A stretch of DNA of 63,897 bases, filler included, from Perkinsus chesapeaki ATCC PRA-425 (taxonomy: Eukaryota > Protista > Perkinsozoa): NCBI GenBank assembly GCA_013115145.1. It is 7 parts of 7 records of this genome, joined end to end, with 100 filler letters (N's around TTAATTAATTAA, not from the genome) between each part and the next. Parts side by side here need not be neighbours in the genome. Positions count along the whole stretch, not along the records: positions 49,197 to 60,008 come from JAAPAO010000875.1; 6 more parts are not named here. One strand, 5' to 3'. Made by a program: the position numbers and the translations under genes. Below the pieces are notes generated by a model that was not told where the DNA came from, ran no database searches, and worked only from the letters and a program-made list of their open reading frames with translations. This document shows, piece after piece, positions 17,244-61,014 of the stretch (the first letter of the stretch is position 1; each line of letters begins with the position of its first letter).

Positions 17244-17254
17244 GACGGGACTTA

Positions 17255-24402: not shown

Positions 24403-24434
<32 letters not shown>

Positions 24435-31876: not shown

Positions 31877-31897
31877 CCATGATAACCATGACATCAT

Positions 31898-34124: not shown

Positions 34125-34142
34125 TCTGCTACTATCAATTGA

Positions 34143-34680: not shown

Positions 34681-34830
34681 ATTCGATGTATGAGTATTAT
34701 GTGTATGAGTTTACAGTGTATAGGTATTTTGTGTACGAGTTGAAAGTGTATTGGTTTTCGGTGTACGGGTCGTAAATGTACGAGTATTCGAGACATGAGT
34801 CGAAGGTGTACGAGTTTTCGGTGTATGGGA
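34681..34830. repeat. 10 x 15-bp degenerate tandem array
   Basis: Conserved RTGTAYRRGT 10-mer alternating with variable 5-mers, exact 15-bp period. Confidence 0.9.
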
Positions 34831-37800
34831 CATGAACACCCCCAATGAATAAGGCACTCAACTTATCAGCAGCATAGTTGCGCTTCCAAACAGTATCACC
34901 AACCTTCAATTGATCATTATGAGGGCGTCGACCACGACTCAACTTGCGACGAACTTCAGCACGACGTTCCAACCAAAGCTCCTTTGAATGACTCAAAGAG
35001 CGTGCCCATTCTTCCTGACAGTCATCACTAATACGCTTAATGTTATCAGTCAGGTCTTGAAATAAAAGCCCACTTCCAAGCCAGTCTTGAACCTGCTCAA
35101 CCATATCAGGTTCTTCTCCAAGGATACAATCTGTAAGACCTCTAGAAGCCCTGCAACAAAGCCAAGGGCTTAACCTACTATCCTCAGCATCTGAGTAAGG
35201 CAAACAGTTCATTGTAAAACATGCCAAACTACACCATTTTCGAACATCATTCATATCCTTCATAGTATTTTCCACTTCCAACTTAGTAGCTCTCAGTAAC
35301 GCACCAAATTCAGCATGGCATCTCTCAATCCATCCTCTTTGCGCAGCGTCGTAGGAATTAGCATGAGCTTGTACAATATGATACCGGGCCAAGACATCCT
35401 TGAACGACGTAGCCATAAAACATTGACCTTGATCATGAACGACCAATCGAGGAATACCTTCTTGTGCTAAAATTTCCACAAAACCAGCAGAGAGGGTGAA
35501 CCCACAACACGTATAGCCACCAATCTTGTTATATAACAAACAGCAATAAGAACCCAACATTTGGACTGGTTCTGCAACCGAATAGGTCCAAATAAATCCA
35601 AACCAACAACACCCCAAATCATAGGAATAAAACCTTTTATAGTACCCATAGCCTTGGACAACATTTTTCCTTCTTTAACTTGAGCACAAATCGAGCACTG
35701 TAATACATATCGCTTTACAGCACAATATAAACCTTTAAACCAACCATATCGTCTCACCAGCTTAACCATTCTGGATATCCCAGGATGGCTAAAAGATAAA
35801 TGTACTTTATCTATCAATTCTTCTTGCAATTCAGTAGTAGGAATAACAGGTACCAGATCATCATCACCATCTCTACGAAATTGTCGAGCCAATAAAAGAC
35901 CCATAGACGAGTCTAAAGCGAATGACCTAACAAGGGTACTTCCGGTATGTGAGCGCAATTCAGCAGCTACATGAACACAGAATGAATCCCCTGATTGAGT
36001 CAATAAAACTCGATTGCGAAACTCAGGATACCAAGAAATAGTGTCAACTAAGGCACATTCTGGCATTCGAGAACAATCAATCAAGGATAACTCATCATCT
36101 ACACAGTCCCATCCTTCAGAGTCAGATAATACCATAGAGTCTCCTCTAAAGGTAACTACTGGATCTTCCTCTACTTGACCAAAAACTAATTCCCAATCAC
36201 CAGGAACCATACTTATAATATCACCAGGACGAGTCAAACGATCAGCTAAGTTACTAGCAGACCTTACATGTTGAAATATCAATACCACATCAGGAATATA
36301 ACGCCTTATACTGCCAACCAAATCACAAATATGTTGAAGTCGTCGATACTCTGGTTTCGGCAATTCTTCAACCTTTTTAGAATCCCTATCAGTTAAAACC
36401 CATCTCAATCGATGTAAAGCAATAGTGCTATCACTAAATACGGTTATGTGCTTTATAAGGGTAACACTGATACTGACCAGACGTTCCAAAGTCACCATTG
36501 CCAACCTCAGTGATTCCAATTCACGAAGCGGTATAGACCCATGACCAGAAGTAATAATCTTAGATTCCACTCGACGACCAACACGATCACGTATGTCATA
36601 GGACATGCAAGTTTCACTGGCATCCGCATAAGCCCAAATACAACCAATATCAACAAAACGAGGCAACAATAAACGATCTGAATCCAGATATTGACAACAT
36701 CTAGCCAATTCAGTCTTAACAAATTCTTCATCTGGAGCTTGCAGCTGAACACCAAGTGCAGCATTTACACCATGACCATATCCTTTCTCATGTAAATATT
36801 TCATCATACATCTTAGTTGTAATGTAACTTCTGATAATAAACCCAAAGGATGATATATTCTGGCTGTAACACTCCTGAGAGTATCCAAACTCACACCACC
36901 ATTATCAGAAATACTCAAATCTGGTATTTTCACATCCATAACATCAGTATCAATATCAATAAATTAGCGATATCCCAACCAGGAACCAATACGAGCTTCA
37001 GCCACTTGTGATAATAACCGTGGTTCACCAATTGCCTCCCCCCTCACAAGTAAATTGTGAGTTCGTTTGAGTTGGTTAACCAGGAACCCTCTTTTAGCAA
37101 GACGTTCTTCAACAATAGCCCTTGATGCTTCCACATCCTCCACCTCATTGCCGAATATTATCAGATCATCGACATAATAGTCTACCGGTAAGCTTTCATT
37201 ATTAATAAACAAAGATTCTCGAATAGCATAAGATAGCGCCCAGGGTGAAAAGTTGGTACCAAACGGTACTCTAGCCCATCGGACCACCACCACACGATCT
37301 TTCAAAGGTAATAGTAGCCACAAATACCTCTTATCCCGGCCATTGATACATACTTGCCAGAACGCTTTGCTCAGATCCTCAGCTGAGACTCTACAATAAG
37401 AACGCCATTTCATCAATGTCCTCCATAAATTCATAGAATCAGTAGAATCACCAGGTGGACAATTAAACATATAAGTATTAATAAATCGAGCATCCAAGCA
37501 TAACCGACACCGTGTCGAAACACGAGAACAATCTATTACAGGTACCACATTCATATAATACGAAGCAAATGAAGAAGGATCCTCGCCATGATATACCTCT
37601 ACTACATTAGCCGATAATAATTCTTTAACAGCAATCTCATAAGCCTCATAAGACTGTTTATCCTTCAAAAATCGCGCAACCATGCGTCTACCACGATGTA
37701 AAGCAGACTTGTAATTAGGAGTAGGTCTAGCTTCACTCTTCCAAGGTATATCAACCTCAATTCTTCCAGGTACGATATCATTATCACCAGTGTCCACCGA

Positions 37801-38184
37801 TACCTCATTACAATCGACCATATCATCAGCAGAATTACCACAAACAGTAGAGATATATTGAACAGACACTCCAGATAATAAAATATCATCTTTACCCTCC
37901 TCAGATGACATCAACCCAATACATCCTTCCAACACCTTAGGTAAAATAAATTTATACCTAGGGTTATCCAATACATAACAATTCACATGACGCACCAATT
38001 CTGTTGTAATAGCAACAGGAACATCATAAATAATACCCAACACACCACAATTAGTACCGTCCACCATATTAACACCAATATCACAATGACAGATTACCAA
38101 GTCTTTTTTTTAGTCTTCTCCCTCTTGCCGGAGAAGATTCACCAAATCTCTCGCAATAAACACATCACTAGCACCAGTATCCAC
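34697..38184 (-). mobile_element. BEL/Pao-like pol (RT-RH-IN) with one stop and one frameshift; 5' end cut by the contig edge
   Basis: DLSKAFWQV, RVPFGTNFSP, YVDD, YADASE..SK..SIPLRELE, FSDSTIAL, NLADRLTR, H..H..CSIC, GLDLFGP, HDQG, WIER. Confidence 0.88.
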
Positions 38185-38446: not shown

Positions 38447-40349
38447 CCAACCGAGAGTATCTCGGCGACCTATGGCTCTAACGGAGCGATATTCCGTATG
38501 AACCTGCGCCGTGGGAAACCAAAAACATGGGAAAGAATTCTGAGGAAATTTCGCTGAATTGTGTTCGAGCGTTGCATTGTCTCCACCCGTAAAGGAGATT
38601 TCAGAATTCACCCGAGGTCCTCGGCTGGTTCGGCTCATCGGCCCGAGGAGAGCTAGAAAGTGTTCCAGCATTAGTATGGAACAATTACTGGTGATTAGTA
38701 AAGAATAGTAAGTCAGCAATTGAGAGATTTAGTATCACAGACTTGAGACAAGTAACTCGTGACTCCTTGCTGGCTCGATGAAGTAGGTTAGTTACATATT
38801 AATAATATGGTTGACCTAAATCCATTGGTAACGAGTATAATAACACCATTACCTCCGCTATTGGATGAACGCTTGAGGCATCCTTTCGGTTTACTAAACG
38901 ATCGGCCAGCTCCAACATACGTGATGATTTCCAACATTGAAAGTGATAGACGAATGGTGATTACCATTACAAGAAATGAAGTATCTTTACAGCTCAGGTC
39001 GAATCGTTAAATCGTTGTCATCAAATGCCGCCTTACATAGGATCGGCCGCTGCACCTTGTGATATCTCACCTCTATCGATGAACGACATGTCACGTCACA
39101 ATGATGAAGGTAAATAAATGGACTGTTATAATAATGATGAAGGATTCAGATGAGAATCCGGAACAGGATTTGGTCGCTGATTTGTCGCCTAATGGCCCGC
39201 CGTCGACTCGAAGGGCGGCGCGAAGAACTCCGAGAGAACGACCTTCGGTGAGATTCTGTCAAAATCATTGATAATTTGATAACATGACATTGACGTTAAT
39301 AATATAAACCTCAGAATCATTCTGAGGCTCATCTTATTAATGGATGTTTTCAGCTCGCTGTTTGTTTTTACTGCCCATCAGTATTGAAGTATACGCACGT
39401 GCTCGCATGGGCGAGGATTGAAAATTTTGCGAGGGGCTCTCACTGCAGGATTCTGGCGGTGGTTGATATTGACGTGTTCTAGCACCAGTCGAAAGTACCT
39501 ATGGCGAATAGAAAACTACAGAGCTCCACCGTGGAGAACGAACGAAAGCTCCAAGACTAAATCAGTATCGCTGATGTCTGAAACTCACAGTTAATTCTTG
39601 TCAGTTCCATAAGAGCTAATTCTGTACACTCGCACGAGTAATGTTGCATCCGAGGTTTGATGAATTCCTATTGGCAGATTGCTCAAAGCCTCGACTTCAC
39701 CGCTGCTGTGATGCCTGTTGTCCCAGACGACGATATGACGTTGGACGAGAGAGCGCAAGCCGATGAAGCTGTTGAGGATTCAAACTCATCTCATTCAGAA
39801 ATAGGTTGATAACACTTAAGCTGTAGATGGTGAATCCTTCATTATAGGGTTGGCAATCGACATGCAAGAAGTTTCTCGCGTATTGGAGAGCGGCTCAAAT
39901 GTTGATTCTCAAGAAGATAATGAAAGATATGATTTCAGCATGGATACTTAAGATACTTTCCTACTCTGATGCTGTTGTATTAATAGAAAAGCCAACACCA
40001 TCACCTTGTAAATGATGCTTGCGAAGTATCTATCTTAACACCATGCACTTGCTACAGTACTGATAAAACACGAAACTTGCTTGATAGGCCACCACTCCCG
40101 TTTTAGGCATCTTGTAATTAGTAGCATCATTGCGCTCAAGGCAGAAGAATTGTGTACTAAAGCTACGGATATCGTCACCAAGGCTGATGTATTATTTGCG
40201 TGTTTGTTCCTCCTAGAATAATTACGAATATTTCCCTTCATCTGCTAACATTAGTGGGCTGAACGAAACAACAATAACAACATGTGACTCGAAATTATAA
40301 CATTACTTTCTACAATACTAGAATTCATTAAATAGAGTTTTAAACTCTA

Positions 40350-41668
40350 ATAATAACTCTCGATAATATCGACTGGTGACTTCCCTCAGCTTGAGGCTGT
40401 AATCGCCCTATCGCAATAGTTATACACTTTCATGGGCAAATCTAACAAAGAAATTGAATTATTCAAACAGATATCCATGGAGGAAATCAGTAATGATGCA
40501 GAAAGTATGTTGCCCGTATCGGTCACTTCAACACTTGCTCATCAGGTAATAAGTCTCCCGACAGATTCCTTAAATTAGTGGAGGCAGGGGGTACACGCTG
40601 GCTGTCGCATAATAATAGCCTAGAAAGACTGATAAGAGTGTATGTCCGACTCGTCAAAGTACTCGACCGAATAGCAGACTCTGACTTCGATATGACGGAT
40701 AGGTCTCGTGCAGAATACTTGCTGGCGAAGATGCTAAGCAAGGACACCGTTCTCTCTCTAACACTCCTTTCGAAGGTCCTCTCAGAACTAGCCCTGATGA
40801 CAAAAGCATTTCAGTCTCCATCGTGGACGCTGGATCGCGCCATTGAGCTCACAACTGATGTTATTCACAGGCTAGACTCTAGCCTCTAGCCGCTAGAGGC
40901 TGTGTCGGATTCAGAGTTATCTTTCGAGAGCAGCCAGCGAGCGGTCGCGCTTCTTGAAGATCTAGAAAAAGCCGACTTCGAGCTAGCCGACCAACCAAGG
41001 AAACCCCGTGCCTGCCGGAAAAAACGGGAGAGAGACTTGTCACCATCACACAGTATGAAGGAGTTCATCATGGCATTAGTAGCCGAGCTGAGACGCCGGT
41101 TCAGCGACGACACTAAACTGGTGGCGTACTTAGAGGTATTCAACCATCCGGCGTGGGTTCCTCGAATACCTACAGTTTCAGCTAGATTTGGTTTCGATAA
41201 ATTCCAACTGTGCTGGAGGCTCGAAACCTTAAGCAACACATAGAACTCACCGAGTCTCTCCGCCAAGCGGCCTCTCCCCCAGAGAGTGTCGCCGCTAAGG
41301 CAGATCATAAGAAAAAATTTTGGCTTGCTTTCTGTTCGGATAGTTATACTAGAACGATGTATCCGGAGCATGCCAAAGTTGCAGCTTTTTTGCTCACATC
41401 ACCGATCAGCTCGAGCAGTGTAGAGAGAGCTATCAGCTACTTCACAAGGATTGACAGTAGTCTCCGTGCAGCAGTGTCGGCTGAGAGAGTATGTACCTTG
41501 ATGAGGCTCTCTATGCAAGCTCCGAAGTTCCCATCTTTATCGACAATGACCTGGCCGCCCGAGGCAAGAGATGTATCAGAGAGCCCCGATGAGGCGGCTC
41601 TTGATGGTTTTATCGACGAGGTCTGCCAAATGTGGTTTGAGAGTCCCCGAAGGATTCTGCCAACATGA
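40350..41668 (+). mobile_element. hAT-superfamily transposase remnant (may extend upstream)
   Basis: KLVEAGGTRWLSH, KVLSELALMTKAFQ, and a C-terminal dimerisation domain YPEHAKVAAFLLTSPISSSSVERAIS..SLRAAVSAERVCTLM. Broken by stops and a frameshift. Confidence 0.78.
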
Positions 41669-41817
41669 CGAACCATTCTGCGGCAGAACTTCTGCCGATT
41701 TACCGAGGCTTTTTCACCGTTCGTTCGTTGAGCTACACGTTTCGGCCTGTAAGCTGGTTGTTGAGCTTCGTAGTAGAATGCATTTTAGAGTCAGATTCCG
41801 GATACCTCGGAGGTGTG

Positions 41818-41839
41818 ACTCACTTAGTGAGTCTCACTA
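41818..41839. repeat. 7-8-7 scar, 8-mer ACTCACTA
   Basis: actcact+tagtgagt+ctcacta, perfect; a one-mismatch scar follows at 41851-41872. Confidence 0.9.
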
Positions 41840-41905
41840 GTAGGTCGATGCCTCGATTATCGAGGCTCGATCGATACAGGCTTGAATCAATACTCTTGAT
41901 TTTAA

Positions 41906-42005: not shown

Positions 42006-42012
42006 TGACTAT

Positions 42013-42867
42013 GTGCGTGGTCTGTTCGAGCCGTACCCTCACCTACGATTCAGTGTGGTTAACCGAATTCTGACTTCTCTAAAGGGGGTCGGCGATGTTC
42101 ATTCGCTAGCCAGCTCTACCGCCGAGCAGCAGAATCATGGTTGGGCCCCTATCCGCCAGGTACTGCTGTCGACATTCGCCAAGAGAGAAACCCTCCTGAT
42201 CGAATTACGTGGGATGGTTGGTGCGTTGAAGTACAGCACAATCGACAAGTTCTGCGCCGATGCACGGAAGGTCTATGCTATGATCGTTCGCTTGTTTGGT
42301 GCCGATAACCAGTATGAGATCCGAGGATTTGTGGAGTCTCTTGTGGCACGGTTGCCGCCTAGCCGAGCATCGGCCTTGATATCCGAGATCCACAATACGG
42401 CCCACCGCCAGTCCTATACTCCTGACTGGCCCTTGGTGCTTCCTTTTGATGGTGCTCACGCGTCCGTCCTGGGTATCCTCAACCGCTTGGAACGTCAAGA
42501 AGTTGCTGCTCGAGCTTTGACGGGCAAGGCGATTAGTGCTGGTGCGGAAGTCGCGGTTGCATTCTCTTCGGCGAAAGCGACCAAGGCGGGACCGACGGCC
42601 GCCAATGGTGGCGCTCCGGGTGTAGCGGTGCGCGAGTGGTGCGCCCGGTACCCGGCCGATTCGCTCATCAAGGTGTTCGGCTTATGGGGAGACGCGCTCC
42701 GACAGAAGATCCCCGATATGGTTGATAACTTCGCGATGCGTGGGCGTAAGCGAAAGTTCCCTTTATTCCGTATCGTGGCACTACCTCAAGGATGTGACCG
42801 GGAGGTGCTGATCGAGAAGCTCAGGGACGCGGGAGTGCGTGCCGAGGTCTTTACCCCTTTTGCTTGA
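42013..42867 (+). CDS. gag-like ORF (5' truncated, no CCHC knuckle)
   Basis: 284 aa ORF directly upstream of and overlapping pol. Confidence 0.7.
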   Translation: MRGLFEPYPHLRFSVVNRILTSLKGVGDVHSLASSTAEQQNHGWAPIRQVLLSTFAKRETLLIELRGMVGALKYSTIDKFCADARKVYAMIVRLFGADNQYEIRGFVESLVARLPPSRASALISEIHNTAHRQSYTPDWPLVLPFDGAHASVLGILNRLERQEVAARALTGKAISAGAEVAVAFSSAKATKAGPTAANGGAPGVAVREWCARYPADSLIKVFGLWGDALRQKIPDMVDNFAMRGRKRKFPLFRIVALPQGCDREVLIEKLRDAGVRAEVFTPFA

Positions 42868-45800
42868 GCCCCGAGCAAGGCCAGAAACTGCTCACTACTT
42901 CGGTACGTCCTGAGCAAGACGATAAACTACTCACCATGACGGGTAGTGCCCCGGATAGGGACATATGCGACCTTCGTTCTTTGCCTGTGGTACATCAAGG
43001 CTCGCCTGTTCCTACCGCTCTGTGGCTCCGATGTTCAGTGCGAGGAAACTGTGGGGCTACCAGGGTTGTTCCAGCCCTGGTTGATACCGGCGCAGGCCTT
43101 AACTTCTGTGTAACCCCTACTGGTGCCTCCCCCTTTGATGCCATCGAGCGAGGTTCATGTTCTATTCCCATACGTTTAGCAGACGGCTCGGTTCGCAAGG
43201 TAGCCGAATGGGTGCGTCTGGCGGTATCGGTGCATTTGGGTGACGGCTCTTTAACTCCGGCGGTGGCACACTGCTTTTATGTTCTTGATGGTCCTGGACT
43301 TGCTCCCCTACGAGGTGATCCGGTGCTCATAGCCGGGAGGCGAATGTTGACCGATCTCAAGATATCCGTGTTATCCGACCCGCTGAGGGTACTACTTGGT
43401 GGAAGAGACGTGTTGTACCATGACCGTGCGAACGACGTCAGCCTTGTCGAGGAGTCCCGCCTTGCCTTGACCGCCGACCCGCAGGCCTTGGACGCGACAG
43501 AGCCACCCGCTAATGGGCATCGCGTTCTCGAACCATCGGAGGCCGACTCTGTCCACATCCCGTTTAATGATGTACCTGTGATCTGTCAGCGCTTGCTGGA
43601 CGACCTTGTTGCTCGGTCGTGGCAGCCAATGCGCAATTGTCCGGGCTGGGAGGCTAGGCTCAGACCCCTTCTGTCGGAAGAGCTATCCGACAATGCGGCC
43701 CAAACGCATGTGTTCGAGCTACGGTGTAATACCGTCAGGGGAGGGAATCTCCCCGTGGTATCACCGACTTCTCGAAGGATATCACTACAGGCATACGAGC
43801 GCCTCAATGAAGTTGAGCGAGCGGCCTTCGACAAGCTGGTTGCTGGTTATGAACAGCGTCAATGGTGGGTGGAGTGCGACGACAGGAAGCTACGGATCTT
43901 GGCTGGTCGAGAGTATGTGCTGGACCCGTCGATAGTCTTCATGGTCCCTGCGGCTCCCCGACGCAAAGCTCGTCTTGTTGTAGATTTGCGGAAAGCAAAT
44001 CAGCGACTCAGAAAGGGAAGTAGCCCGTCCATTGATGTCTCAACTTGTATAGCGGCCGCGAGGCTGCACTCCTCGTCATGCTTGTTACTGTTAGATGCTT
44101 GCCAAGCCTTCTATAAGCTGCGATGGCTCAACATGAAGGCCCTACTGCTGGTCCGTGGGCAGCTGTATCTCTCGGACCGATGTGTGTTCGGCATCAGCAC
44201 AGGTCCGGGAAGCCTGTCGCATACCTTAGGAGCGGTGGCCGAAGCCTTCCGTCGTGTTTGCAGCAACGACTACCATCTCTTCTTGAACGACTTCGCCGAC
44301 GATCTGTTATGCGCAGGAGAAGATGCGGCCAAGGCTGTATGTTGGCTAATATATACTATGACGAGGTGTGGGTTCACCGTTGGTATCTCTAAGTTTCAGC
44401 CAATGGCAACGGCCAGAATGAAGCTCTTGGTCATGTCCGTTCTCCACAAGCTCGGCCTTCCGGAGGACTTGTTCGTGTGGCAGGACTCGGTTAACCTTCT
44501 GGGTTGTACGCTTTCTTACGACTACTCTGACGAGGAGGGGTCTCTGGTTGTTGCATGTGAACGGCATGAACGGNNNNNNNNNNNNNNNNNNNNNNNNNNN
44601 NNNNNNNNNNNNNNNNNNNNNNNNNNNNNNNNNNNNNNNNNNNNNNNNNNNNNNNNNNNNNNNNNNNNGCCATGAACGGTTGCGATCGGCCAGGACTCAG
44701 GCTAGGCAGCTCCTGGTAGCCCTCGACAACATGGAGGTGCAGGATAAGGGTATCACTAAGTCCTTCATATTCTCGTGTGGGGGTAATCTAGCATATGATA
44801 GCTGTGGCGTACATGCGGAAGAACGTGCGGTGGCAGCCGCTATCCGCAGTTGCTTTGCCAAGGTCTACGCGAAGATTGGTTGGCGCTCCCCATGTGATCT
44901 AAGGTTACTTGATGAACCACGTCGCGCAGCTGTTCGAGCTCTAGCGGAATGGATTCTGGAGTTGACCACGGATGCTATCCTATCCAAACCCTGCGCACAC
45001 CACACTCCTGTCCGGCACGACTTGGACCGCATTACCCTGGAAGTGGTATCCGACGCCTCAGCCACTGGCGCTGGCTATGTTATATCTCTGGTTGGGAGGA
45101 ACGGAGCCCGGCATGTCCTTGTAAATGGTGCGTGGCGCTTCACGGCAGCTCAAAGAGTATACCACAGCAATCGAAGAGAGCTGGCAGTATGCTGTCGAGC
45201 GGTGCAAGCGGCGGCTGATCTGCTGAGTCATTTCGCATCGAAGAGCTCCCACATTCCGCCGGTTCGATTGGTTGTGCGTTCAGATAACCGACCTACGGTC
45301 GCCTGGCTCCAAGGCGAAGGCGGGGTGTCACGATCATCTCTGGAACGTCGAGCAGTTTTGCGAACGCTGAACGCGCTTAAGGACGAGCTGGATTTTCTAA
45401 GGTCACTCTGCCGGTCCGGTCCCGAGAAGGGGATCGTTATTGAGCATATTTCCGGCGTCGCCAACTCTGAGGCCGACGGTCTGTCCCGTATCTTCGAGAA
45501 GATGGTCCCTCTACCCAGCGGTAAGAAGATCAGCCTGGCCGACGCACTCCTAGGAGGAGTCGATATCCTACCGGACGCCGCAGAGTATCCGGACATCTTC
45601 CAGGAACCTGATGGTGTCGGGCAAGGACTATCCTGGGTTATGAGAGAGGCAGATGAGAGAGTGCTCCACGAGGTGGACGTATTCCAGCTTCTTTGTGTCT
45701 TGGCTCCAGGACCATCTCCACGCCATGAGGCAGCCGGCCTAGAACTACTTGCGACTCCGGAGGGCCAGGGCAAGCCGGAGCCTATCGTGACGACTTTGTG

Positions 45801-47253
45801 TCACCGCAACTGGGACGTCGAAGGCGTTCAGGCTGACTTTGAGTTCCTTCGTCGAGTCTTCCGGGCAATGAGGCCCAAACACCGTCTTAGACGGGTGTTC
45901 CGAGCTCTGCGACCAGAGAGGATTATCATAGAGGAGAGCAGGACCAGTCTTCTGCGAGCTTTGCAGCAAGATTTTGATCCTATTCAGCTGAAGGCGACAG
46001 GCCCCTACGTTCTGGACGAGCATGGTATCTATTGCTTCCGGAATGGAAGCCCCGATGGCGGACATGTGCTTCTACCTCTGCTACCTGCGAATGATACGAG
46101 ATGCGCCCCGTACAGGCGCAAGCTTCTGTTGGATTCACACCGAAGGTCGGCTCATGGTGGTCTTGGTTCCACAATGTCCAGGATAAGCTACTCTTTTTAC
46201 ATACCGGGCTTGCGGTGCGAATGTAAGAAGCTTATTAAGTACTGTTATTGCTGTCAGTTGCAGCGCGCTCGCCGGACGTGGCAGCAGCTGCCGGGCCTGG
46301 GAGATTCCAAGAAGGAACAGCTGAACTGGGAACCCTATCACGACGTCTACATTGACTTCTTGCACCTTGGTGAGGTCCGCGGTTATGATGGTCCGACTAC
46401 TATCCTGACGGTTTATTGTCTGGCAACAGGGCATTCCTGCTGGGTCCCCTGTGCAGAAACACAAGAGGCGGTACTACGTGGACTCCGGCGAGTTCAAGCG
46501 CAAGAAGGAGGCCTCGCCATTATACGATGTGACCAAGCGAGTTACTTTCGGTCGAGCAAGTTTGAAGAGGAAGTCTCCCGCCAGTTAGGCGGTCAAGTTA
46601 TGTTGATGAAAGCTCGGTCTCCCTGGCTGAGTGGAGGCGGCGAGCGACTCCATGCTTTAGGGCTTCGCATTGCTCGAGTGCTGCTCCGAGGTCAAACCGG
46701 GACGAGTGCCGGTCCCGGACGCCGTCGTCGTCGTAAGGCAGATGGTTCTGTCGACCTGGAGGAGATTTGCCGGGAGGTCACCCTACTGTTGAACACCAGA
46801 CCACTTGACTTCGCCAATGCGGAAGATACCTCTGGCGAGCTTTTCGTGGTTACCCCCGATCTGTTGGCGCGAGGGTTTACTCGCAAAACGGGGTGCCTAG
46901 CGTTAGCTTCGTCCAGCGCACCTATTGCTTCAAGAATACGAGCCGTGAGGACTTTTTTCTTGGCACGTGTATTTGGTAACATGCGCCAAGCGGTAGCGAA
47001 GTCTTTTGGTTACAAGACAGCCCGAGGTAGGCCACTGAACTTGAGCATTGGTGACCCGGTACTGGTCTATCGACCTGGTAAAAAGGTTTCTCCTGGTTTT
47101 CGTATGGGGCGTGTGACCTCGGTAACAACAAGCCAGCGCTCGGTTACGGTTCGCCTGAACGATGGTTCCGAGGCCCTCCAGCACCACTACAACGTCGTTA
47201 AGTTGCTGAAAGACCCTGCCCTGTCGCAGCAGGGAGGGCGTGATGAGATTTGA
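42864..47253 (+). CDS. pol polyprotein PR-RT-RH-IN
   Basis: LVDTGAG, LLDACQAF, CVFG, DFADD, SDASATGAG..RRELAV..SDN..EADGLSR, H..H..CYCC, IDF..CDQ..ER. Confidence 0.9.
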
Positions 47254-49196: not shown

Positions 49197-49657
49197 CGGG
49201 CACCCGAATCAATTAGAACTTGAACACGAGCCCCGGGCCCTGACTGCCTTAGAATCACATCAATCGTGGGATCTCCTGACGTAATCTCATTTAACCTGAT
49301 GATTTCATCATCAGCGTATCGCAGAGTGGCTATCTTCTCAAACTTCGGGTTACTAGTAGCCTGAGAGTTGGGATCATTGGGAGGAGATGAAGTGCACGAA
49401 CCATTACCAGAATTGGATGTCGTTGTTGAGGGTGCGCATGGCTGACCATTAGCAGTTGAGTCGTTCTCTTCTGGTGATACCAAACCTTTACGTACTAGCC
49501 ATTGGAGACGTGCTGGACAGTCTCGTTTGATATGGCCAAACTTGTGACAAAAGTAACACTGCCTAGAATCTCTACTCGAGGTAGCCGAAGACTGACCATT
49601 CCCATTCGCCAATATGGATAAAAGCTGCTCAATCCCTGAGCTATCAATAATCTTGAC

Positions 49658-49679
49658 CTTATCAATGATAAGTTATCAT
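49658..49679. repeat. 7-8-7 scar, 8-mer CTTATCAT
   Basis: cttatca+atgataag+ttatcat, perfect. Confidence 0.92.
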
Positions 49680-50080
49680 TAGATTTCTCCAATGGGTCGG
49701 GCCTAATACCATAATTACGATCTTCCGAATAGCTTAGATCTTTAGCAAGAGCCTCTACAGATCGATAGTGAGCATAAGTTTTGACTACCTTCTTGTAGTC
49801 ACCCCGTAGACCATCAATAAAACGTTTAAGAATCTCGGACTCGCTGAGGTTAATGTCGATGCATCTACCAGCGCTCACCATCTTCTTTACACGCTTATGA
49901 TAACTTGTTATCCTTTCAGCAGAACCTTGCTTTAGACCATCAAAACGTTCTCGCCAGCGTACTGGATCGTCAGTAGCTTGATACTTTTCGATCATAAATC
50001 TCTTAGTCATGCTCAGCTTAGTTACGATATCCACTTTCGGAGCCATAGACCTTTCCAGGAAGTCAAATATGTCAGATAAC

Positions 50081-50102
50081 ACTCCAGGCTGGAGTCTCCA
50101 GC
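50081..50102. repeat. 7-8-7 scar, 8-mer ACTCCAGC
   Basis: actccag+gctggagt+ctccagc, perfect. Confidence 0.92.
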
Positions 50103-50560
50103 ATCTACGGCTCGGATAAGAAATGACCAACATGTTTCAGCATCCAGACGATAGATACGCACCACTTGTGAGAATGAACGTACCCATGCCGACACAGGTC
50201 TTGAATCATCTTCTCCAGCATATTGCACAGCATCAGGTATAGGCAACTGAGCAGTAGCGGTAATTCTCTTAGTATCAGCGCCATGACTATCAAGAGCAAC
50301 TGCACCACGTAGATAGTCAGAAATATATGAGCGACCTTCCGAGTGACCATCAGATATAGGTGCCGCTACTTGTTGTGGTATAGCCGCCGGTGGCGTAGAT
50401 GCCAAACGAATCTGGTCAACCAATTCTCGTCGAGTTAAGCGATCAGCCAAGCCTAATGACCTTTCAGCTTGTTCCAAGTCTTCAGTCCGAAGATATCGTA
50501 TACTGGCCTCTGGAACACCTAATAAAACTGATAGACGTTGTAGTGCACCTCGATCTCCAA

Positions 50561-50582
50561 CTTGTTGCCAACAAGTTGTTGG
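50561..50582. repeat. 7-8-7 scar, 8-mer CTTGTTGG
   Basis: cttgttg+ccaacaag+ttgttgg, perfect. Confidence 0.92.
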
Positions 50583-51558
50583 CCATCACTGCCAACATTA
50601 CCAAGATTTACCGAAGAAGGACTCGTAATACCATTGATTGGAGTCGTCGGAACCGGAGTATTCACTGCATCGGGTACCATTATAGTGAATTACGTTCATT
50701 ACGTATTACATTCCCATTACGTTCATAAAATTGCATTACAAGGCACTAGCGTCACGCTATGCACAACACAGAAAATGGGGCAATTATTGTGGGATGAGAT
50801 ATCATATCTGGGACAATCTCTACACTTTGTCTTCTATGTCAAGATGAAGAGGACTCTCCAGTTCATCGTGCTTTGAACTGCTCTAAGAAGAACTATCCGT
50901 CGTGGTTAGACAGGCTTGGGACACTTGGACAATTTAGTGTCAACAGCTATAAACTGCACTGCCTATACACTCTACTTAAATGAACCTTTATTACACGGTG
51001 GTTCCTTAATTAGCTAATGGCTCCCCTTATGTCTGACTAAACCCATAACTGGGTGTCGGACACTAAACTACACACACACCATCACTGTTATTGGATCACG
51101 CTGACGGCGTCCTGATCGAGAAGGACGGAGTGGTGCTCAAGGCGCCACCGATAGTTCGCCCAGAGGAGTCTATTATTTGTGAGTTCCAGCAAACTCTTTC
51201 TGTCCTTTCATTTGTACGAGGGTTTTCGTTGTGTCACCGCGCGATAGTGACCCTTTGGTTGTCACAGTGTATATGCGTGCGTAGGAATGGATTATCCATT
51301 ATATTACTAATTATGCATTCTCAAGTGGAGTCTTATTCGCACGGGAAAATGTTACCTTGAAGAAATGAGCCTGCTGTATTTTCCAGGAAAGTATAGACCA
51401 GTTCGTTGGGCCCTTTTCGCTGTAGTCGCTGCTATGATACCTTGTATTATTTCCTACTCGCTCAAAGGTTCGAAGCCCATCTTATTGGCATGCGCCTAAG
51501 TGGAGCAATAAGGTTTCATAGCCTTGGCAGTTGTTACCTCATTTGAAAGGGCTTCAAC

Positions 51559-52881
51559 ATGGATACTCCCTTCGCCGTCGCTCGATTCTTGAGAAGTCTA
51601 GCTGCTTTGCTTCGCGTTGTTCTATCAATCAGACCTTACTTATGGTATCTCATTCTCCAGCGTTGTCTACTCATCAATGTTGATAGGCTTAGAGTATACA
51701 TTAGAAGTATACTTCACTCCCCTCAGACAGACCACTTCGTAGCCGCCGCCTTGGAAGGTTGTGGCGTGACATATCTGGGCGATGAAGTTGTGACTGGGGG
51801 GTATGTGACATCAGTTAAGAGAGTATATGTTGATCAAAAGAAGAACGTTAAGCTGCCTGATAGTGTTATTATGAAGAGCCTATCGAGCAATTTCTATAGG
51901 CGTTTGGCAACTTGTGGAATCTACCAGCGCGAAGTACGATTTTACAACGAGGTGGCGCGCACTCTACCTATACCGATTCCCAGGGTTCACTCCTGCAAGT
52001 GGGATAATTGGCGATGCTCTGGACTTATTATTCTAGAGGACCTCAAGACTGGCGTGTTGATGAGTGATAAACTGTTAACACATGAAGACCCCAAGGGTTT
52101 AGTTTCGGAAGCAATGCGGGTTGCCGCCCGGATGCATGCGAAGTACTGGGGTGCAACCCCCTCCACTCTGGCAAAGTCTAGTTTGGGTAAATATCCCTGG
52201 CTCAAAGGTTATGACTACATACAAGGCAGAAATAAGGGAATGTACGCATCCGCTAAATGCCTCCTGTCGTTCCTATGGGATAAAGTGAAGAGAGCTATTT
52301 TGGAGGGAAGTGTGGGTGAGCGCGAATACGGAGTCAAATTGAGAGGAGAGCTTGTAGAGTTCGTTGACAAGGCAATTGAGGCTTCTACCTGGGATGCCTA
52401 TCAAAACTACTTGAAAACCTCCAAGCATCCTCTCACTTTTATCCATGGTGACTATTACACTAACAACCAATTATGGGATGAGGAGACGAAGAGGCTCTAC
52501 ACGGTCGATTGGTCAGAAGTATCGGTTGGTGAAGGCCCTGCAGATATAGCACTGTACTTTTTCGGATACCCTCAAGTAGCAAAATGTCGCAAATGGGAAG
52601 AAGAGCTAATCCGTATATATTGGAAGGAGCTCGGTGCACAAGGAGTCGATCTGTCTTCGTACCCTCTCTCTATGTGCCGTGAAGCGTATGTTCGGGGTGG
52701 CATTGATAAAGGGATTCAGCGACTGATTATGGCAGCGGTTCCCGCACTTTACTGTCCTGCGCTAATTCCTGTGCCATTAATCCAAGGTGTTGTAGATCAA
52801 GTGGATGCGTTTGTTACCGAACATAAGATGGAATACCGTAGCCCCTACCTACTAGCGACTGCTTACTTCGATACGTGGTAA
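51559..52881 (+). CDS. EcKL/APH-choline-kinase-like phosphotransferase, copy A (intronless)
   Basis: VIMK, YQREVRFY, IILEDL, IHGDYYTNN, VDWS..G.G.ADIA; hydrophobic N-terminus. Confidence 0.8.
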   Translation: MDTPFAVARFLRSLAALLRVVLSIRPYLWYLILQRCLLINVDRLRVYIRSILHSPQTDHFVAAALEGCGVTYLGDEVVTGGYVTSVKRVYVDQKKNVKLPDSVIMKSLSSNFYRRLATCGIYQREVRFYNEVARTLPIPIPRVHSCKWDNWRCSGLIILEDLKTGVLMSDKLLTHEDPKGLVSEAMRVAARMHAKYWGATPSTLAKSSLGKYPWLKGYDYIQGRNKGMYASAKCLLSFLWDKVKRAILEGSVGEREYGVKLRGELVEFVDKAIEASTWDAYQNYLKTSKHPLTFIHGDYYTNNQLWDEETKRLYTVDWSEVSVGEGPADIALYFFGYPQVAKCRKWEEELIRIYWKELGAQGVDLSSYPLSMCREAYVRGGIDKGIQRLIMAAVPALYCPALIPVPLIQGVVDQVDAFVTEHKMEYRSPYLLATAYFDTW

Positions 52882-54167
52882 GCTTAAGCCGGTCGGTTGT
52901 CAAGCTAGTAGTCAAGTTTCTTTTATAGAGCAAGTGTCTTAGCTCCAGCTTGATCATCAATCTTTCATTAGCTGTATCCAATGTATAATACTCTCCTACC
53001 AATAAACGAGCTGTTGAGCTAGCCGTAATACATCAATTCCGAAATAATGCCCGATTTCGTCTCGAAATTTTCGGGACGCGGAGGGAATATTGCGTATTAT
53101 CCAAACAACCCTCAGGAGACTGCAACGCGCTGACACATCCCAACTGGATGTATGTCACTCAGTTCGCCCCTATCAGCCGCAGTGAAAGTCAGAGGAGGCG
53201 CTATGATCATTCAGATTAATTGATGCTCAATTTGCTCAGCACATCCCTAAATCTATTAGCCTAACAACATATGTGCCGATATCGTCATATATCGAGGACT
53301 CAATAGAATGAGATCGGTAAGAACGTCACAGATGCCCCATACAAATCAGTTGCGCTGTCCACCAAGTCATCTACGCTGGTAAATTGTAGAATGCTTTGTT
53401 TGTTCGCAGTTAGTGGCGAGATGCCTCTTAGAGACTACCCTCTTTTTCAGGGCACTACTAACGTGTTACTACTCTCACTTAACGCTCTTGCGAAAGGTGA
53501 CGGGGACATGGGGCCGATGAAAGCTCAACTCTGTCACGCAGACAATAATGTGTCCGCGCGGAGGCACATGCAAGAACTGTTGCATTTCCTTGTCACAGCA
53601 AGGAAGGAGGAAAGTGAACAAGAGGTGTTCTTCGCAACAGCTCTCGCGAGGGTCTGAACTTAGAACACATATCACTCGCATTATATCTCTTCCAACTTGC
53701 AGTCAGACTAATCTAGTAATACTTCTCGAGGAGCACTATTATCAGCTTTTGCTACGTTCGTACATGACATACTGGCTACCTTACATGTTTTCTGTATAGT
53801 TAAACCTGCAAGGTTCGACGCGGGTAAATTCGTTCTTCGGGGGACGCTTCGCTCCGCCACGTTCTGAGATTTGACCATTGTGTAAGCTACGTAGCTTCTG
53901 TTTCATAATGATATAGTAGAGCAGAAAACTCATGTCGTTCGCCCTTGTGTGGAGTTTTCTCCTCCCTGTCCATTTCCCATTTTTTTCGTTTTTCTAGGGT
54001 ACGGGGAGTGCGCTCACCTTAGTCCTCTGCATTTGAGTTACTCATTTGCAGAGACCTAACGTGAGTGCTTCGATGGTTGGGCTAAGCTTTGCCTTGTAGG
54101 CAGCTTTGCCCTTACCATTTCTTCCCAGTCCCCCGTACCTACGAATTTATTGTCAAACAGACCTGCT

Positions 54168-54636
54168 ATGTTCCTTAACGATATACTCTTTCATCTATCT
54201 CAAATACTGGTTATTAGCCATTATTGATAAACTCAGAGTGTACCTTGAAAAGTTGTTCTTCAACCTGCAGCCCGACAGCCTCGCAGCTACTGCGCTGAAA
54301 GATTGTGGGATGAAGTCGTTACTGGCGGACTGGCATGCGCGGTTAGGTGGATACATCTGGAAAACAACTCCAGATAGTGTCATTATAAAGAGCGTCTCGA
54401 CCAGTTTGCATATGCGTTCACACTCGGGGTGCACTTCTACAATGAGATATCACACACCTTGCCTATACCGATTCCCCTCGTCTACTTCTCGGAATGGAAA
54501 GACTGGCGCTGTTACCAACTAATTGTAATGGGAGGTATCCGAATGGGTATTCCAGCTACATACAGACTGTTAACGCCGGACGGCTCCAAAACTGTTGTTC
54601 AAGAACCGATGCTAGTTGCTGCCAGGATCACGCACA
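54168..54636 (+). pseudogene. Truncated, frameshifted EcKL copy B
   Basis: Near-identical to the 5' part of 58219-59478 but with deletions. Similarity ends at ..VAARI and unrelated sequence follows. Confidence 0.8.
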
Positions 54637-56186
54637 AGGACTCGGTTGTGGACGTCACCTTCTTCGAAGGTCCTTACTCTGTGGAGGGCTGGTTCGTTTT
54701 CGATGACTTGGGGTTGAGGTACGGCCATCAACGCCATCAAAGGTATGGCGCCACCTACAGTCCGGACTCCGGAATCCTACCGAAGGATGCAGCTCTAGGA
54801 AGCCCGGATTCCGAAGCCGTGTCGTACAACTTCTCTCGTAGCAGCAGCTCTACCCAATCTAATTAGCGTGTGTGTAAGTCTTTAGTCCAGCGGCAGAAAT
54901 TACCTAGTTGAACTATCCTAGTTGACTACGTGCAACTGCCGAGAGAGTTCAATGCCGATACTGTTAGTGTCACTGTATGGTTCAACCAGAAGAATGCAAC
55001 TAGTGATCAGATATCCTGCTCCTCCCAGCAGGGTTTCCTTACGCAACCGAGGGCCTGTGTACAACTAGCAAAACACGACGGCTCGCGAAGTGTGACGCCA
55101 CAAGCTTCATCTCTCAGTCTCCCAGACTGGCGTACACTTACTGGCTAAATATCTCATCAAATCTCACGAGATGAAAATCTACAGATGATTTTAATTTTGC
55201 CGATATGTAGTTCGACATGCTAATTTTCGCATACTCTAGGACAACAGGCTAGCATATTGTTGGCAGCCATTAGGTGCCACAGGGCCTTAAGGAACGTTGT
55301 GCAGCATTCTTGAACAATGCCGCGAGAAACGGCCTTGGGAATGCTTCTCCGAAGAGTGTATACCATGCGCATGGCGCAGTCTTGATGGTGCAACACAGAC
55401 TGCGCCCAGCGCGAGGTCTCCGGAGAGCCTGGGGCAGCTGGACCACACTTACGCTGCTGTAGATTCAGAGTGATTCCGCGAGTGGAATCGTATTCGCACG
55501 GTATAATGTTGCTTTGGAGAGATGGACCTGCTCTATTTTCCAAGAGAGTATGACCGTTCTGCAGCGAGCCAGATCTTCGGCTGGCACGGTGCGAGTCGAA
55601 GTCCGCACTCCAAACTGAGCTGAAGAAGCAGGCTTGCTCTGCATTTCAATCCTGAACGCGTCCTTGTGACGCGGAAGTTCTGCTTTTTTGCCGATAGCTA
55701 TACTTCTATGGACTGGTATTTCGGTGCTTTCCTTTTCGCCGATCGGCGCTGAGAAGCGACTACCCACCACGTCGGCCCTCCAGAAACACACGGATCAAGG
55801 AACTCGCATGAAATGATTTTCCGCTGGAGTAGTAGTACTATTTTTCGAGGCTTTTCAAGAATTCAGCCGAGTGGGTGTGATTGTCTCGTGCCCGATATTA
55901 TACCCCTTTATAGTAGTAAGCTGACATTTTCCGATAATTATTTCTTCGTCTAAAGACGTTAACTGTGAAGTTCGCACCAGGAAACGGGTGGCTTGATCCA
56001 GCCTTGCCTGCAGCAGCTCCAGTACGGCTCTGTTAGGTCTTTTGTGCTGTACTTGGGGTTACAATACCAAGTTATGTTTTCTACTCGGTTCAAGGCGCAT
56101 GGCGTAATCCCAGGGATGCTTCGGAAGTGGAGCAGTAAGGTTTCAGAGCCTTTGCAGTTGTTACCTCATTTAAGAGAGGCTTTAAC

Positions 56187-57509
56187 ATGGACATTTCCTT
56201 CGCCGTCCCTCGATTCTTGGGAAGTCTAGCTGCTTTGCTTCGCGTTGTTCTATCAATCAGACCATACTTATGGTATCTCATTCTCCAACGTTGTCTACTC
56301 ATCAATGTTGACAGACTTAGAGTATACATTAGAAGTATACTTCACTCCCCTCAGACAGACCACTTCGTAGCCGCCGCCTTGGAAGGTTGTGGCGTGACAT
56401 ATCTGGGCGATGAAGTTGTGACTGGGGGGTATGCGACATCAGTTAAGAGAGTATATGTTGATCAAAAAAAGAACGTTAAGCTGCCTGATAGTGTTATTAT
56501 GAAGAGCCTATTGCTCAATTTCTATAGGCGTTTGGCAACTTGTGGAGCCTACCAGCGCGAAGTACGATTTTACAACGAGGTGGCGCGCACTCTACCTATA
56601 CCGATTCCCAGGGTCTACTTCTGCAAGTGGGATAATTGGCGATGCTCTGGACTTATTATTCTAGAGGACCTCAAGACTGGCGTGCTGGTGAGTGATAAGC
56701 TGATAACACATGAAGACCCCAAGGGTTTAGTTTCGGAAGCAATGCGGGTTGCCGCCCGGATGCATGCAAAGTACTGGGGTGCAACCCCCTCCACTCTGGC
56801 AAAGTCTAGTTTGGGTAAATATCCCTGGCTTAAAGGTTATGACTACATACAAGGCAGAAATAAGGGAATGTATGCATCCGCTAAATCCCTCATGTCTTTC
56901 CTATGGGATAAAGTAAAGATGGCTTTTTCGGAGGGAAGTGTGAGTGAGCGCGAATACGGAGTCAAATTGAGAGGAGAGCTTGTAGAGTTCGTTGACAAGG
57001 CAATTGAGGCTTCTACCTGGGATGCTTATCAAAACTACCTGAAAACCTCCAAGCATCCTCTCACTTTGATCCATGGTGACTATTACACTAACAACCAATT
57101 ATGGGATGAGGAGACGAAGAGGCTCTACACGGTTGATTGGTCTCAGGTATCGGTTGGTGAAGGCCCTGCAGATATAGCAGAGTACTTTTTCGGATACCCT
57201 CAAGTAGCAAAATGTCGCAAATGGGAAGAAGAGTTAATACGTATCTATTGGAAGGAGCTCGGTGCACAAGGAGTCGATCTGTCTTCGTACCCTCTCTCTA
57301 TGTGCCGTGAAGCGTATGTTCGGGGTGGCATTGATAAAGGGATTCAGCGACTGATTATAGCAGCGGTTGCCGCACTTCACTCTCCTGCGCTAATCCCCGT
57401 GCCATTAATCCAAGGTGTTGTAGATCAAGTGGATGCGTTTGTTACCGAACATAAGATGGAATACTGTAGCCCCTACTTACTAACAACTGCTTACTTCGAT
57501 ACGTGGTAA
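56187..57509 (+). CDS. EcKL-like phosphotransferase, copy A'
   Basis: Same length as copy A (440 aa); I count 27 amino-acid differences. Confidence 0.82.
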   Translation: MDISFAVPRFLGSLAALLRVVLSIRPYLWYLILQRCLLINVDRLRVYIRSILHSPQTDHFVAAALEGCGVTYLGDEVVTGGYATSVKRVYVDQKKNVKLPDSVIMKSLLLNFYRRLATCGAYQREVRFYNEVARTLPIPIPRVYFCKWDNWRCSGLIILEDLKTGVLVSDKLITHEDPKGLVSEAMRVAARMHAKYWGATPSTLAKSSLGKYPWLKGYDYIQGRNKGMYASAKSLMSFLWDKVKMAFSEGSVSEREYGVKLRGELVEFVDKAIEASTWDAYQNYLKTSKHPLTLIHGDYYTNNQLWDEETKRLYTVDWSQVSVGEGPADIAEYFFGYPQVAKCRKWEEELIRIYWKELGAQGVDLSSYPLSMCREAYVRGGIDKGIQRLIIAAVAALHSPALIPVPLIQGVVDQVDAFVTEHKMEYCSPYLLTTAYFDTW

Positions 57510-57582
57510 GCTTAAGCCGATCGGTTCTCAAGCTAGTAGTCAAGTTTCATTTATAGAGCAAGTGTCTTCAAACTGCTGCCCT

Positions 57583-57702
57583 CCTACCAACTTACCTTAC
57601 TACTAACTCTCTCCTACCAACTCAACCCATCCTAGACTATCGCCTACCAACTCAACCCATCCTAGACTATCGCCTACCAACTCAACCCATCCTAGACTAT
57701 CG
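57583..57702. repeat. 30-bp minisatellite (3 copies plus 1 degenerate)
   Basis: cctaccaactcaacccatcctagactatcg, inside an insertion absent from the paralogous flank after 52881. Confidence 0.9.
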
Positions 57703-58218
57703 ATTTGGCATCTACCTATATGATGTATTTAGTTATGTCAATGATAGTGCTGATTTCACACTCTCACTAAATCCGCAAAAGATATAGCTCCAGCTTGATA
57801 AACCTGTCAATCTGAGCGTTGATCAATCTTTTATTAGCTGTATCCAATGTATAATACTCTCATACCCCATGTTACTTATGTTACTACTCTCATTTAACGC
57901 TCTTGCGGATGGTGACGCGGCCATGGAGCCGATGAGAGCTCAATTCTGTCACGCAGACAATAATGTGTCCCTGTGGAGGCACATGCAAGAACTGTTGCAT
58001 TCCCTTGTCACAGCAAGGAAGGAGGAAAGTGAACAAGAGGTGTTCTTCGCAACAGCTCTCGCGAGGGTCTGAACTTAGAACACATGTTAACTCGCATTAG
58101 ATCTTTTCCAGCTTGCAGTCAGACTAATGCTTCTCGAGGAGCACTTTTATCAGCTTTTGCTACGTTCGTACATGACATACTGGCTACCTTCTGCGTTGTC
58201 TCCTCAAACAGACCTGCT

Positions 58219-59478
58219 ATGTTCCTTAACATATATTCTTTCATCTATCTCAAGTACTGGTTATTAGCCATTATTGATAAACTCAGAGTGTACCTTGGAA
58301 AGTTGTTCTTCAACCTGCAGTCCGACAGCCTCGCAGCTACTGTGCTGAAAGATTGTGGGATGACGTTTATGAGCGACGAAGTTGTTACTGGCGGGTTCGC
58401 AGGCTCGGTGAGGAGGATATATCTGAGAAACAGGGAGGATGAAGACTCTCCTGGTAGTATCATCATAAAGAGCGTTTCGACCACCTTGCATATGCGTTCA
58501 CACTCGGCCATGTGTGGAGTCTGTCAACGCGAAGTGCGTTTCTACAATGAGATATCACGCACCTTGCCTATACCGGTTCCCGAGGTCTACTTTTCGGAAT
58601 GGAAAGACTGGCGTTGTTACCAATTAATTGTGATGGAAGATATCCGAATGGGTATTCCAGCTCTAGATAGATTGTTAACGCCGGCTGGAGCCAAGACTAT
58701 AGTTCAAGAAGTAATGTTAGTTGCTGCCAGGATCCATGCAAAGTACTGGGGTGCAACTCCCTCTACTTTGGCAAAGTCTAGTTTGGGTAAGTATTCCTGG
58801 CTAAAAGGATATGACTACATTCAAGGCAGAAGTAGAGGAATGTACGAATACTGTAAAAATAACATTTCAGCTTGTTGGGATGAAGTAAAGGCTGCTATTT
58901 CGGAGGGAAGGCTCGGAGACCGCCAATACGAAATCAAATGGAGTCCAGAGCTGGTGAAGTTTATTGATAAGGCAATTGAAGATTCTACTTGGGATGCTTA
59001 TCAGAAATATCTGAAAACTCATAAACATCCTTTGACTTTGGTTCATGGCGATTATCATGCTGGTAATCAGTTGTGGGTCGAGAAGACGAAGAAACTTTAC
59101 ACGGTCGACTGGTCAGCAGTATCAGTAGGTGAAGGTCCTGCCGATCTCGCGGGATACTTCTTTTTCCCACATACCGCTAGGTATCGCCAATGGGAAAGCG
59201 AACTCATCAGCATCTATTGGAATGAGCTTCGAAGACAAGGAGTAAATCACTCTTCGTATCCTCTCTCCATGTGTCGGGAAGCTTATGTTCGAGGTGGCAT
59301 TGACCGAGGCATTCAAGTACTCATTTTGTTAGCTGCTTCTGCAATTCATTGTCCTGGGCTTTTCCCTGTATCATTTATTCAAGGTTTTGTTGACCAAGTA
59401 GATTCCTTCGTTGCTGAGCACAAGGAAGAGTACAGCAACCCCTACTTATTTACCAGGGCCTATATTAACCCGTGGTGA
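58219..59478 (+). CDS. EcKL-like phosphotransferase, copy B'
   Basis: CQREVRFY, IVMEDI, VHGDYHAGN, VDWS..ADLA. ATG at 58219 inferred from alignment with copy B. Confidence 0.82.
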   Translation: MFLNIYSFIYLKYWLLAIIDKLRVYLGKLFFNLQSDSLAATVLKDCGMTFMSDEVVTGGFAGSVRRIYLRNREDEDSPGSIIIKSVSTTLHMRSHSAMCGVCQREVRFYNEISRTLPIPVPEVYFSEWKDWRCYQLIVMEDIRMGIPALDRLLTPAGAKTIVQEVMLVAARIHAKYWGATPSTLAKSSLGKYSWLKGYDYIQGRSRGMYEYCKNNISACWDEVKAAISEGRLGDRQYEIKWSPELVKFIDKAIEDSTWDAYQKYLKTHKHPLTLVHGDYHAGNQLWVEKTKKLYTVDWSAVSVGEGPADLAGYFFFPHTARYRQWESELISIYWNELRRQGVNHSSYPLSMCREAYVRGGIDRGIQVLILLAASAIHCPGLFPVSFIQGFVDQVDSFVAEHKEEYSNPYLFTRAYINPW

Positions 59479-59955
59479 CTTGGGCATCGATGAACGCTTC
59501 TGAGGCTACTACTCGTGAAACGATTTTGCAAAGGTCTAGTTTCCCGAAGTCCTGCTAACCTGCTACCCCGCGTTGTGTCGAGGGTGATACTAAATATATA
59601 AATTCTTATATATAGCGATGATACTAAATGTCGGTGAAATGATACACACCATTGTCTCATGCTTATCTCTCTGCTGTCACTCCGTTCCATTCTTAGAATG
59701 TCATTCTAGACTATTGTTGACTCGGAATCCACTTCGTTGATGTGTTACGTTTTATGAATGGTACCCGTGATGTAACACTCAAGTCTCCTTTGGAACCATT
59801 TACATCAGCCTTTCAAAAACCCGACGTGTAACAGAATTTGAAAACTGGTGTCGGGCTTCTTCGTTGCAGCAACGTTCATATGACATATATGGCTTATACG
59901 GAGACTATGGCGAGAATGCTATGAGCTGTGTTAATTCTGTCTATCGTTAAATACT

Positions 59956-59977
59956 ACTCCACGGTGGAGTCTCCACC
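59956..59977. repeat. 7-8-7 scar, 8-mer ACTCCACC
   Basis: actccac+ggtggagt+ctccacc, perfect. Confidence 0.9.
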
Positions 59978-60008
59978 CTATATTAGTCTGTATCTGTGCC
60001 CATAGTTG

Positions 60009-60992: not shown

Positions 60993-61014
60993 ATAGCAAT
61001 TTGCTATTAGCAAA
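60993..61014. repeat. 7-8-7 scar, 8-mer ATAGCAAA
   Basis: atagcaa+tttgctat+tagcaaa, perfect. Confidence 0.9.

Follow-up and report, generated by a model that had tools for sequence, protein, structure and literature searches.

The question raised by this locus is how a single gag gene came to be broken three times by the same kind of scar, and whether such breaks are aimed at retroelements. The gene lies on the minus strand at positions 49197-50680 of a window of 63,897 nucleotides (the whole stretch of DNA analysed, filler included) from Perkinsus chesapeaki ATCC PRA-425 (assembly GCA_013115145.1), which consists of 9 contig pieces split by N gaps. A first-pass annotation had described three perfect 7-8-7 scars in this gene and had attributed them either to extreme cut-and-paste traffic or to preferential targeting of retroelement DNA, that is, to a possible genome defence.

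The sequence comprises gag and the start of the protease of an LTR retrotransposon, is truncated by the contig end at 49197 and carries the Pfam domains Retrotrans_gag and zf-CCHC. We confirmed the three scars at 50561-50582 (break 1), 50081-50102 (break 2) and 49658-49679 (break 3). Each of these perfect +14 footprints has the exact structure T[1-7]+revcomp(T)+T[2-8] with its own 8-bp word T, and the four segments delimited by the scars have one stop-free frame each. When each scar was replaced by a gap of n unknown bases, a gap of 8 bases yielded 0 stops over 494 codons, whereas gaps of 6, 7, 9 and 10 bases gave 21-24 stops. Thus, removal of 14 nt per scar does restore one open reading frame, as had been proposed, and it does so only for the 8-base gap.

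Using the middle gag segment as query, 3 proteins were returned among 233 candidates: P0001 (100% identity) and P0002 (88%), both labelled P. chesapeaki, and the gag/pol polyprotein P0003 of P. marinus (75%). In the alignment, the gag ATG at 50680 matches residue 1 in both full-start relatives. The sister gag protein P0002 is continuous across all three scar sites. P0003 is continuous across the downstream pair and uninformative at the first site, which an alignment gap spans. Contigs assembled from the public runs X1 and X5 were exactly 14 nt shorter at 50082 and 50562; for 49659, such a contig came from X5 alone. Because the sister protein reads through and the run contigs lack the 14 nt, the three scars are derived insertions, and here the annotation was right. 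P0001, the database gene model of the window gag itself, has gaps over the first two scars and is out of frame past the third. These gaps are likely false introns invented to dodge the frameshifts, and the model exemplifies how such scars mislead gene callers. The domain order of P0003 is RT followed by integrase, which is of the Ty3/gypsy type. The window copy ends after the protease motif and its pol is not visible because the contig stops at 49197; the complete order gag-protease-RT-integrase is seen in the relative P0003 only.

X1 and X5 are runs from two studies, and either may be the source of the assembly. At 49342-49491, the window haplotype was matched in the run contigs with 0 differences and at single-copy depth. 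Among the matches listed for the two runs, whose contigs drop minority branches, none carried the three gag scars, and scar-free sister gag copies predominate. Of 37 differences tested within the gag family (from the 40 listed of 89 difference rows), 25 were synonymous and, therefore, the family was under purifying selection while the window copy was lost. This copy looks young, with 6 window-specific residues in ~250 informative columns and at most about 1.1% neutral divergence. It sits at the end of the piece 49197-60008 and adjoins three tandem ecdysteroid-kinase-like genes (51547-59478), two of which are 95% identical, with a decayed fourth copy near 53464-54648. Two minor runs, which we guessed to be RNA, gave coverage on the neighbouring kinase gene only.

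Similar scars occur throughout the window. We counted 15 perfect scars, compared with 0 in 200 block shuffles, and all 15 have different 8-bp words. At word lengths of 6 or 9-12 the window holds no perfect scars, and at length 7 there was one low-complexity match. Besides these perfect copies, 11 scars have one mismatch and 7 have two. In a second count, the numbers of scars with 0, 1 and 2 substitutions were 14, 13 and 5, respectively (shuffled sequence: 0, 0 and 0.3); the scars have decayed by point mutation. A tolerant two-hairpin scan recognised 33 footprints in 63 kb, a count that leaves out the +9 to +12 rows, which are near chance, and a single +15 row. Twenty-nine of these footprints are +14, a form found once across 4 shuffles together, and the four longer ones, of +21, +22, +24 and +36, none of which arose in shuffled sequence, are compatible with a different junction between the same two hairpins. 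The +36 variant (19385-19428) is in frame, has a 23-nt left palindrome arm and lies within an RT-like open frame. Short forms of +7 to +9 were not above chance in the window (+7: 4 vs 7.2; +8: 4 vs 3.2), in a scan whose low-complexity filter removed 3 of the 15 perfect scars. Palindromes centred on one base were in strong excess over shuffled sequence (40 vs 4.5 for an arm of 7; 22 vs 0.8 for an arm of 8), whereas the excess of even palindromes was much smaller (10 vs 4.1 and 1 vs 1.0, respectively). The three gag scars have three different targets, and this footprint count points to the heavy cut-and-paste traffic that had been postulated.

The footprints are overdispersed (variance/mean 2.2, p=0.0008), and 5 pairs lie within 40 bp of each other (p=0.003), which suggests that fresh scars were targeted again or that hopping was very local. 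Footprints that abut or are separated by at most 11 bases can be seen at 359-401, 650-704, 13887-13936 and 41818-41872. Eight footprints fall into an old, decayed retroelement (359-2335, with an RT at 897-1433), and three +14 footprints lie within 200 bp (41675-41872) just downstream of a hAT remnant. The densest long cluster, 7 footprints within 613 bp at 13324-13936, is located in single-copy non-coding DNA that contains no recognised element. There, contigs of X1 and X5 span 13169-14157 with 0 differences at single-copy depths of 90 and 115, and the one ORF tested gave no Pfam match. A short repeat at a contig start (13095-13153), where the summed depth of the X1 bin is very high, is found again at 33870-34128 within a unit of ~220 bp whose end is repeated; the Rfam and tRNA scans returned 0 matches, this repeat included. 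At 12771-12811, 39296-39340 and 10596-10636, we observed long inverted repeats (arms 19-22 nt, centre 1-3 nt), which are possibly one-sided hairpin footprints.

An LTR element at 14099-18484 places one scar in time. The element is near-intact, single-copy and young, with 143-bp LTRs (about 14099-14241 and 18328-18484) and a 5-bp ACTAC flanking duplication. Alignment of the two LTRs gave 157 columns with one 14-nt gap and 2 mismatches in 143 aligned bases. One LTR carries a perfect +14 footprint (18342-18363), which an X5 contig crosses with 0 differences. Since its partner has a single 8-bp word, this scar postdates integration and is not a product of reverse transcription. We also observed a TGG-starting site beside the upstream LTR and, where the gag frame of this element ends, a compound palindrome (17385-17420) that is possibly two nested footprints.

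In our view, it is probable (roughly 80%) that the three gag breaks are neutral excision footprints of a hAT-type transposon in a dead retrotransposon copy, which accumulated where selection is absent. According to the literature, hAT transposases create an 8-bp duplication at insertion and flank hairpins at excision (PMC5499845), Ac/Ds leaves palindromic footprints whose centre is the complement of the base beside the element (PMC5873905), and hAT footprints are joined at microhomologies (PMC5873905, PMC1978519). Applied to the present scars, an element would insert and thereby duplicate an 8-bp target T. At excision, as is known for hAT elements, each flank would be nicked one base away from the element and its end closed into a hairpin. 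Once unfolded, the left end would read T1-7 followed by revcomp(T), and the right end would begin with revcomp(T) and continue with T2-8. Both hairpins would be opened at least 8 bases from the tip. The word that the two unfolded arms have in common would be precisely the 8-nt inverted target, and annealing over it with subsequent fill-in would yield the 7-8-7 structure with a net gain of +14. The first scar would have killed the gag copy and the other two would be later neutral hits. Clusters of footprints are a general feature of retroelement and other non-coding DNA alike, and gag would be one of them.

When we simulated hairpin repair with offsets of 0, 1 and 2 bases, net gains of +16, +14 and +12 were obtained in 1997, 1997 and 1996 of 2000 trials, respectively; the simulation presupposes that the ends join at their longest shared word and shows consistency, not proof. 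Since an offset of 1 gave +14, the observed gain singles out the one-base offset. For Hermes, a target preference of nTnnnnAn has been reported (PMC10368747). T at position 2 or A at position 7 was present in 29 of 52 half-sites of our targets (p=2e-5) and in 17 of 30 when perfect scars were considered (p=4e-4). The perfect-scar targets are as biased towards T3/A6 (19/30) as at positions 2/7, and this bias is not predicted by nTnnnnAn. Taken together, the footprints exhibit the 8-bp target duplication, the one-base offset, a net gain relative to the empty site and the nTnnnnAn preference.

A candidate family for the scar maker is the one represented by a decayed hAT transposase at 40360-41668 (plus strand), whose own sequence is interrupted by a single footprint (+21, at 40870-40898). 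The remnant shares 55-66% identity with the Perkinsus hAT proteins P0004, P0005 and P0011, and Dimer_Tnp_hAT scored above the cut-off in P0005 and P0011. The hAT transposase family is thus present in Perkinsus, as the window remnant and as the proteins P0005, P0011 and P0012. Candidates for the D, D, CxxH, W and E residues of a hAT transposase were picked by eye. Among ~8,000 candidates scored, no full-length P. chesapeaki hAT transposase was found, and P0012 is partial. A PDB sequence search with P0011 returned 2 matches only, which had E-values of about 0.08 and were disregarded. When the window was searched for elements bounded by terminal inverted repeats and a duplication of 7-9 bp, 6 matches were returned. 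None was credible: five were of the simple-repeat type and the sixth was a 7-bp match at chance level. Nor did we see a filled allele at any of the scars. These negative results count against the hAT reading, as does the lack of an excess of short footprints, the forms that prevail in hAT experiments.

The targeting hypothesis holds that a hAT-type element or a domesticated transposase prefers retroelements or silenced chromatin and that the +14 footprint serves as a defence that kills retrotransposon copies. Perkinsus would then harbour a hit-and-run mutagen of hAT type that has a preference for young retroelement copies, inactivates them by a near-deterministic +14 frameshift and leaves no inserted DNA behind. 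The state of the gag gene speaks for this idea, since every break of its frame is a scar and the segments in between are free of stops, and a domesticated hAT transposase that makes hairpin breaks, Kat1, has been described in yeast (PMC4763223). Quantification of scar densities, the comparison that the first-pass annotation had called for, pointed in the opposite direction and thus gave, within this window, the outcome that the annotation had named as refuting targeting. In this one window with its hand-drawn classes, retroelement DNA holds 13 footprints in 20,588 bp (0.63/kb) and other non-coding DNA 19 in 19,217 bp (0.99/kb), although the latter class may conceal unrecognisable old elements as well as unannotated exons (binomial p=0.22; p=1.0 with the AT-rich block added). 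Perfect scars follow the same order (0.34 vs 0.42 per kb). The footprints per retroelement stretch were 8, 1, 1, 0, 0, 0 and 3, and the three empty stretches, which may be collapsed copies, total 10.6 kb. Long open frames of a BEL/Pao-like element and of a second retroelement, both free of footprints, were observed at 34697-38109 and 42007-47253. The young single-copy LTR element described above has 1 canonical scar in 4.4 kb. The proposal of a targeted genome defence was therefore not upheld within the window: scar density is lower in retroelements, and the densest long cluster lies in single-copy DNA outside any recognised element.

At the non-coding rate, three footprints in the 1,484 bp of gag have p=0.18, and for perfect scars only p=0.025; in 38% of uniform trials, some tile of 1,484 bp received at least 3 of the 15 perfect scars. 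The youth of the gag copy argues for targeting under a steady-rate model (p=0.013, expectation 0.15) but not under an exponential age model (p=0.39), both being crude corrections over 27 tiles. On this rough basis, gag after age correction is between unremarkable and mildly enriched, and some local excess is possible. The prevalence of scar-free sister copies and the mostly synonymous differences within the family also count against the defence hypothesis.

Host exons hold 0 footprints in 13,218 bp (p=0.0004), and this absence fits purifying selection because a frameshift would hit any gene. By eye, a perfect scar at 60993-61014 lies in an apparent short intron of a minus-strand host gene. That +14 always shifts the frame, as had been argued in favour of defence, is correct; still, in-frame +21 and +36 variants exist, and host genes are equally breakable even though their exons contain none. 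The AT-rich block at 21300-33400 (about 30% GC), with 0 footprints in 8,846 non-exon bases despite the T/A target bias, could be counted in favour of targeting. This block is rich in simple repeats and contains genes for cytochrome c1, a kinase and a desaturase. All in all, we consider the defence hypothesis unlikely and retain neutral hAT excision as the preferred explanation.

It is also improbable that the same hairpin-and-anneal repair followed the excision of a Mutator-like or Merlin element, superfamilies that likewise generate 8-bp duplications. Muta1 does form flank hairpins and has 8- or 9-bp duplications (PMC5499845), and P. marinus possesses Merlin-related ORFs, a family with duplications of 8-9 bp (PMC8101967). 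Nevertheless, the perfect scars include no 9-bp word and their target bias resembles that of Hermes. Moreover, more than 90% of Muta1 excisions in yeast are reported as precise (PMC5499845), and in the available text of PMC8101967 a hairpin is not mentioned for Merlin (0 occurrences).

A very improbable scenario dispenses with transposons altogether and invokes fold-back template switching during replication or reverse transcription, which would generate forward-inverted-forward micro-triplications. It would accommodate the longer variants and the one-sided palindromes, and in the window there is no mobile element with matching ends. Such switching leaves the fixed 8-bp word, the fixed one-base offset and the symmetric target bias without reason, and reverse transcription is excluded as source because a scar is present in one LTR only and scars occur in single-copy DNA. 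Finally, we regard as extremely improbable a library or assembly artefact, or a mosaic contig piling scars of different copies into one gag: gag is multi-copy in both runs, one of which may have supplied the assembly, and its scars are missing from the contig matches listed, but the 7 footprints at 13324-13936 were recovered from two runs and scar 18342 from one, the window haplotype at 49342-49491 was found at single-copy depth, and the scars show point-mutation decay and avoid exons.

For neutral hAT excision the mechanism is known, and what is unusual is the near-uniform footprint, fixed in the genome about once per 2 kb. We considered loss of classical NHEJ as a cause of this uniformity and rejected it for P. 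marinus. This species is scored with Ku70, Ku80 and Lig4 (3/3 present) in Table S1 of PMC6635534, and NHEJ loss therefore does not explain the uniform outcome. PMC11936186 contains no mention of Perkinsus. Non-homologous transgene integration has been reported for P. marinus (bioRxiv 2021.06.11.447996). In the literature outside subscription, we found no report of such scars in Perkinsus by title or abstract, and the exact +14 product may already be in print among Ascobolus or yeast footprints.

Because the exact footprint is readable from a single genome, the transposon insertions and excisions of the past can be counted in Perkinsus, with their target words preserved. Such a record allows target-site logos and a relative clock to be derived with no need to compare strains. 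It further indicates that the repair of hairpin-capped breaks is far more uniform here than in the cited plant and yeast assays, in a genus scored with Ku and Lig4 (PMC6635534, for P. marinus), and such uniform repair allows a test of which factor opens the hairpins. The defence idea, if true, would matter more, but it is unsupported here.

How do these scars compare with known systems? Repeat-induced point mutation and similar defences inactivate repeats by mutation, whereas the Perkinsus scars are without preference for retroelements in the window. The MULE Muta1 is alike in its flank hairpins and 8-9 bp duplications but differs in its mostly precise excision (PMC5499845), and Perkinsus lacks 9-bp scars. 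TcBuster shares the 8-bp duplication and hairpin-type footprints (PMC3499496), but its nnnTAnnn consensus recurs in only 8 of 52 Perkinsus half-sites. Hermes, an Ac-type hAT element, is similar with respect to the 8-bp duplication, the nTnnnnAn preference and the flank hairpins (PMC10368747, PMC2803484); the Perkinsus targets add the T3/A6 bias, and the scar-making element is here only inferred. Ac/Ds in Candida albicans, S. cerevisiae and Arabidopsis leaves palindromic additions centred on one base and proceeds via flank hairpin, opening and microhomology joining (PMC5873905, PMC1978519). Its footprints are described as varied and mostly short, with a longest arm of 3 nt and 28 types in 128 clones in Candida (PMC5873905) and with arms of at least 3 nt in 47% of the yeast footprints (PMC5873905, PMC1978519). 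In Perkinsus, by contrast, 29 of the 33 recognisable footprints are one and the same product, in which both 8-nt arms appear to have annealed over the whole inverted duplication.
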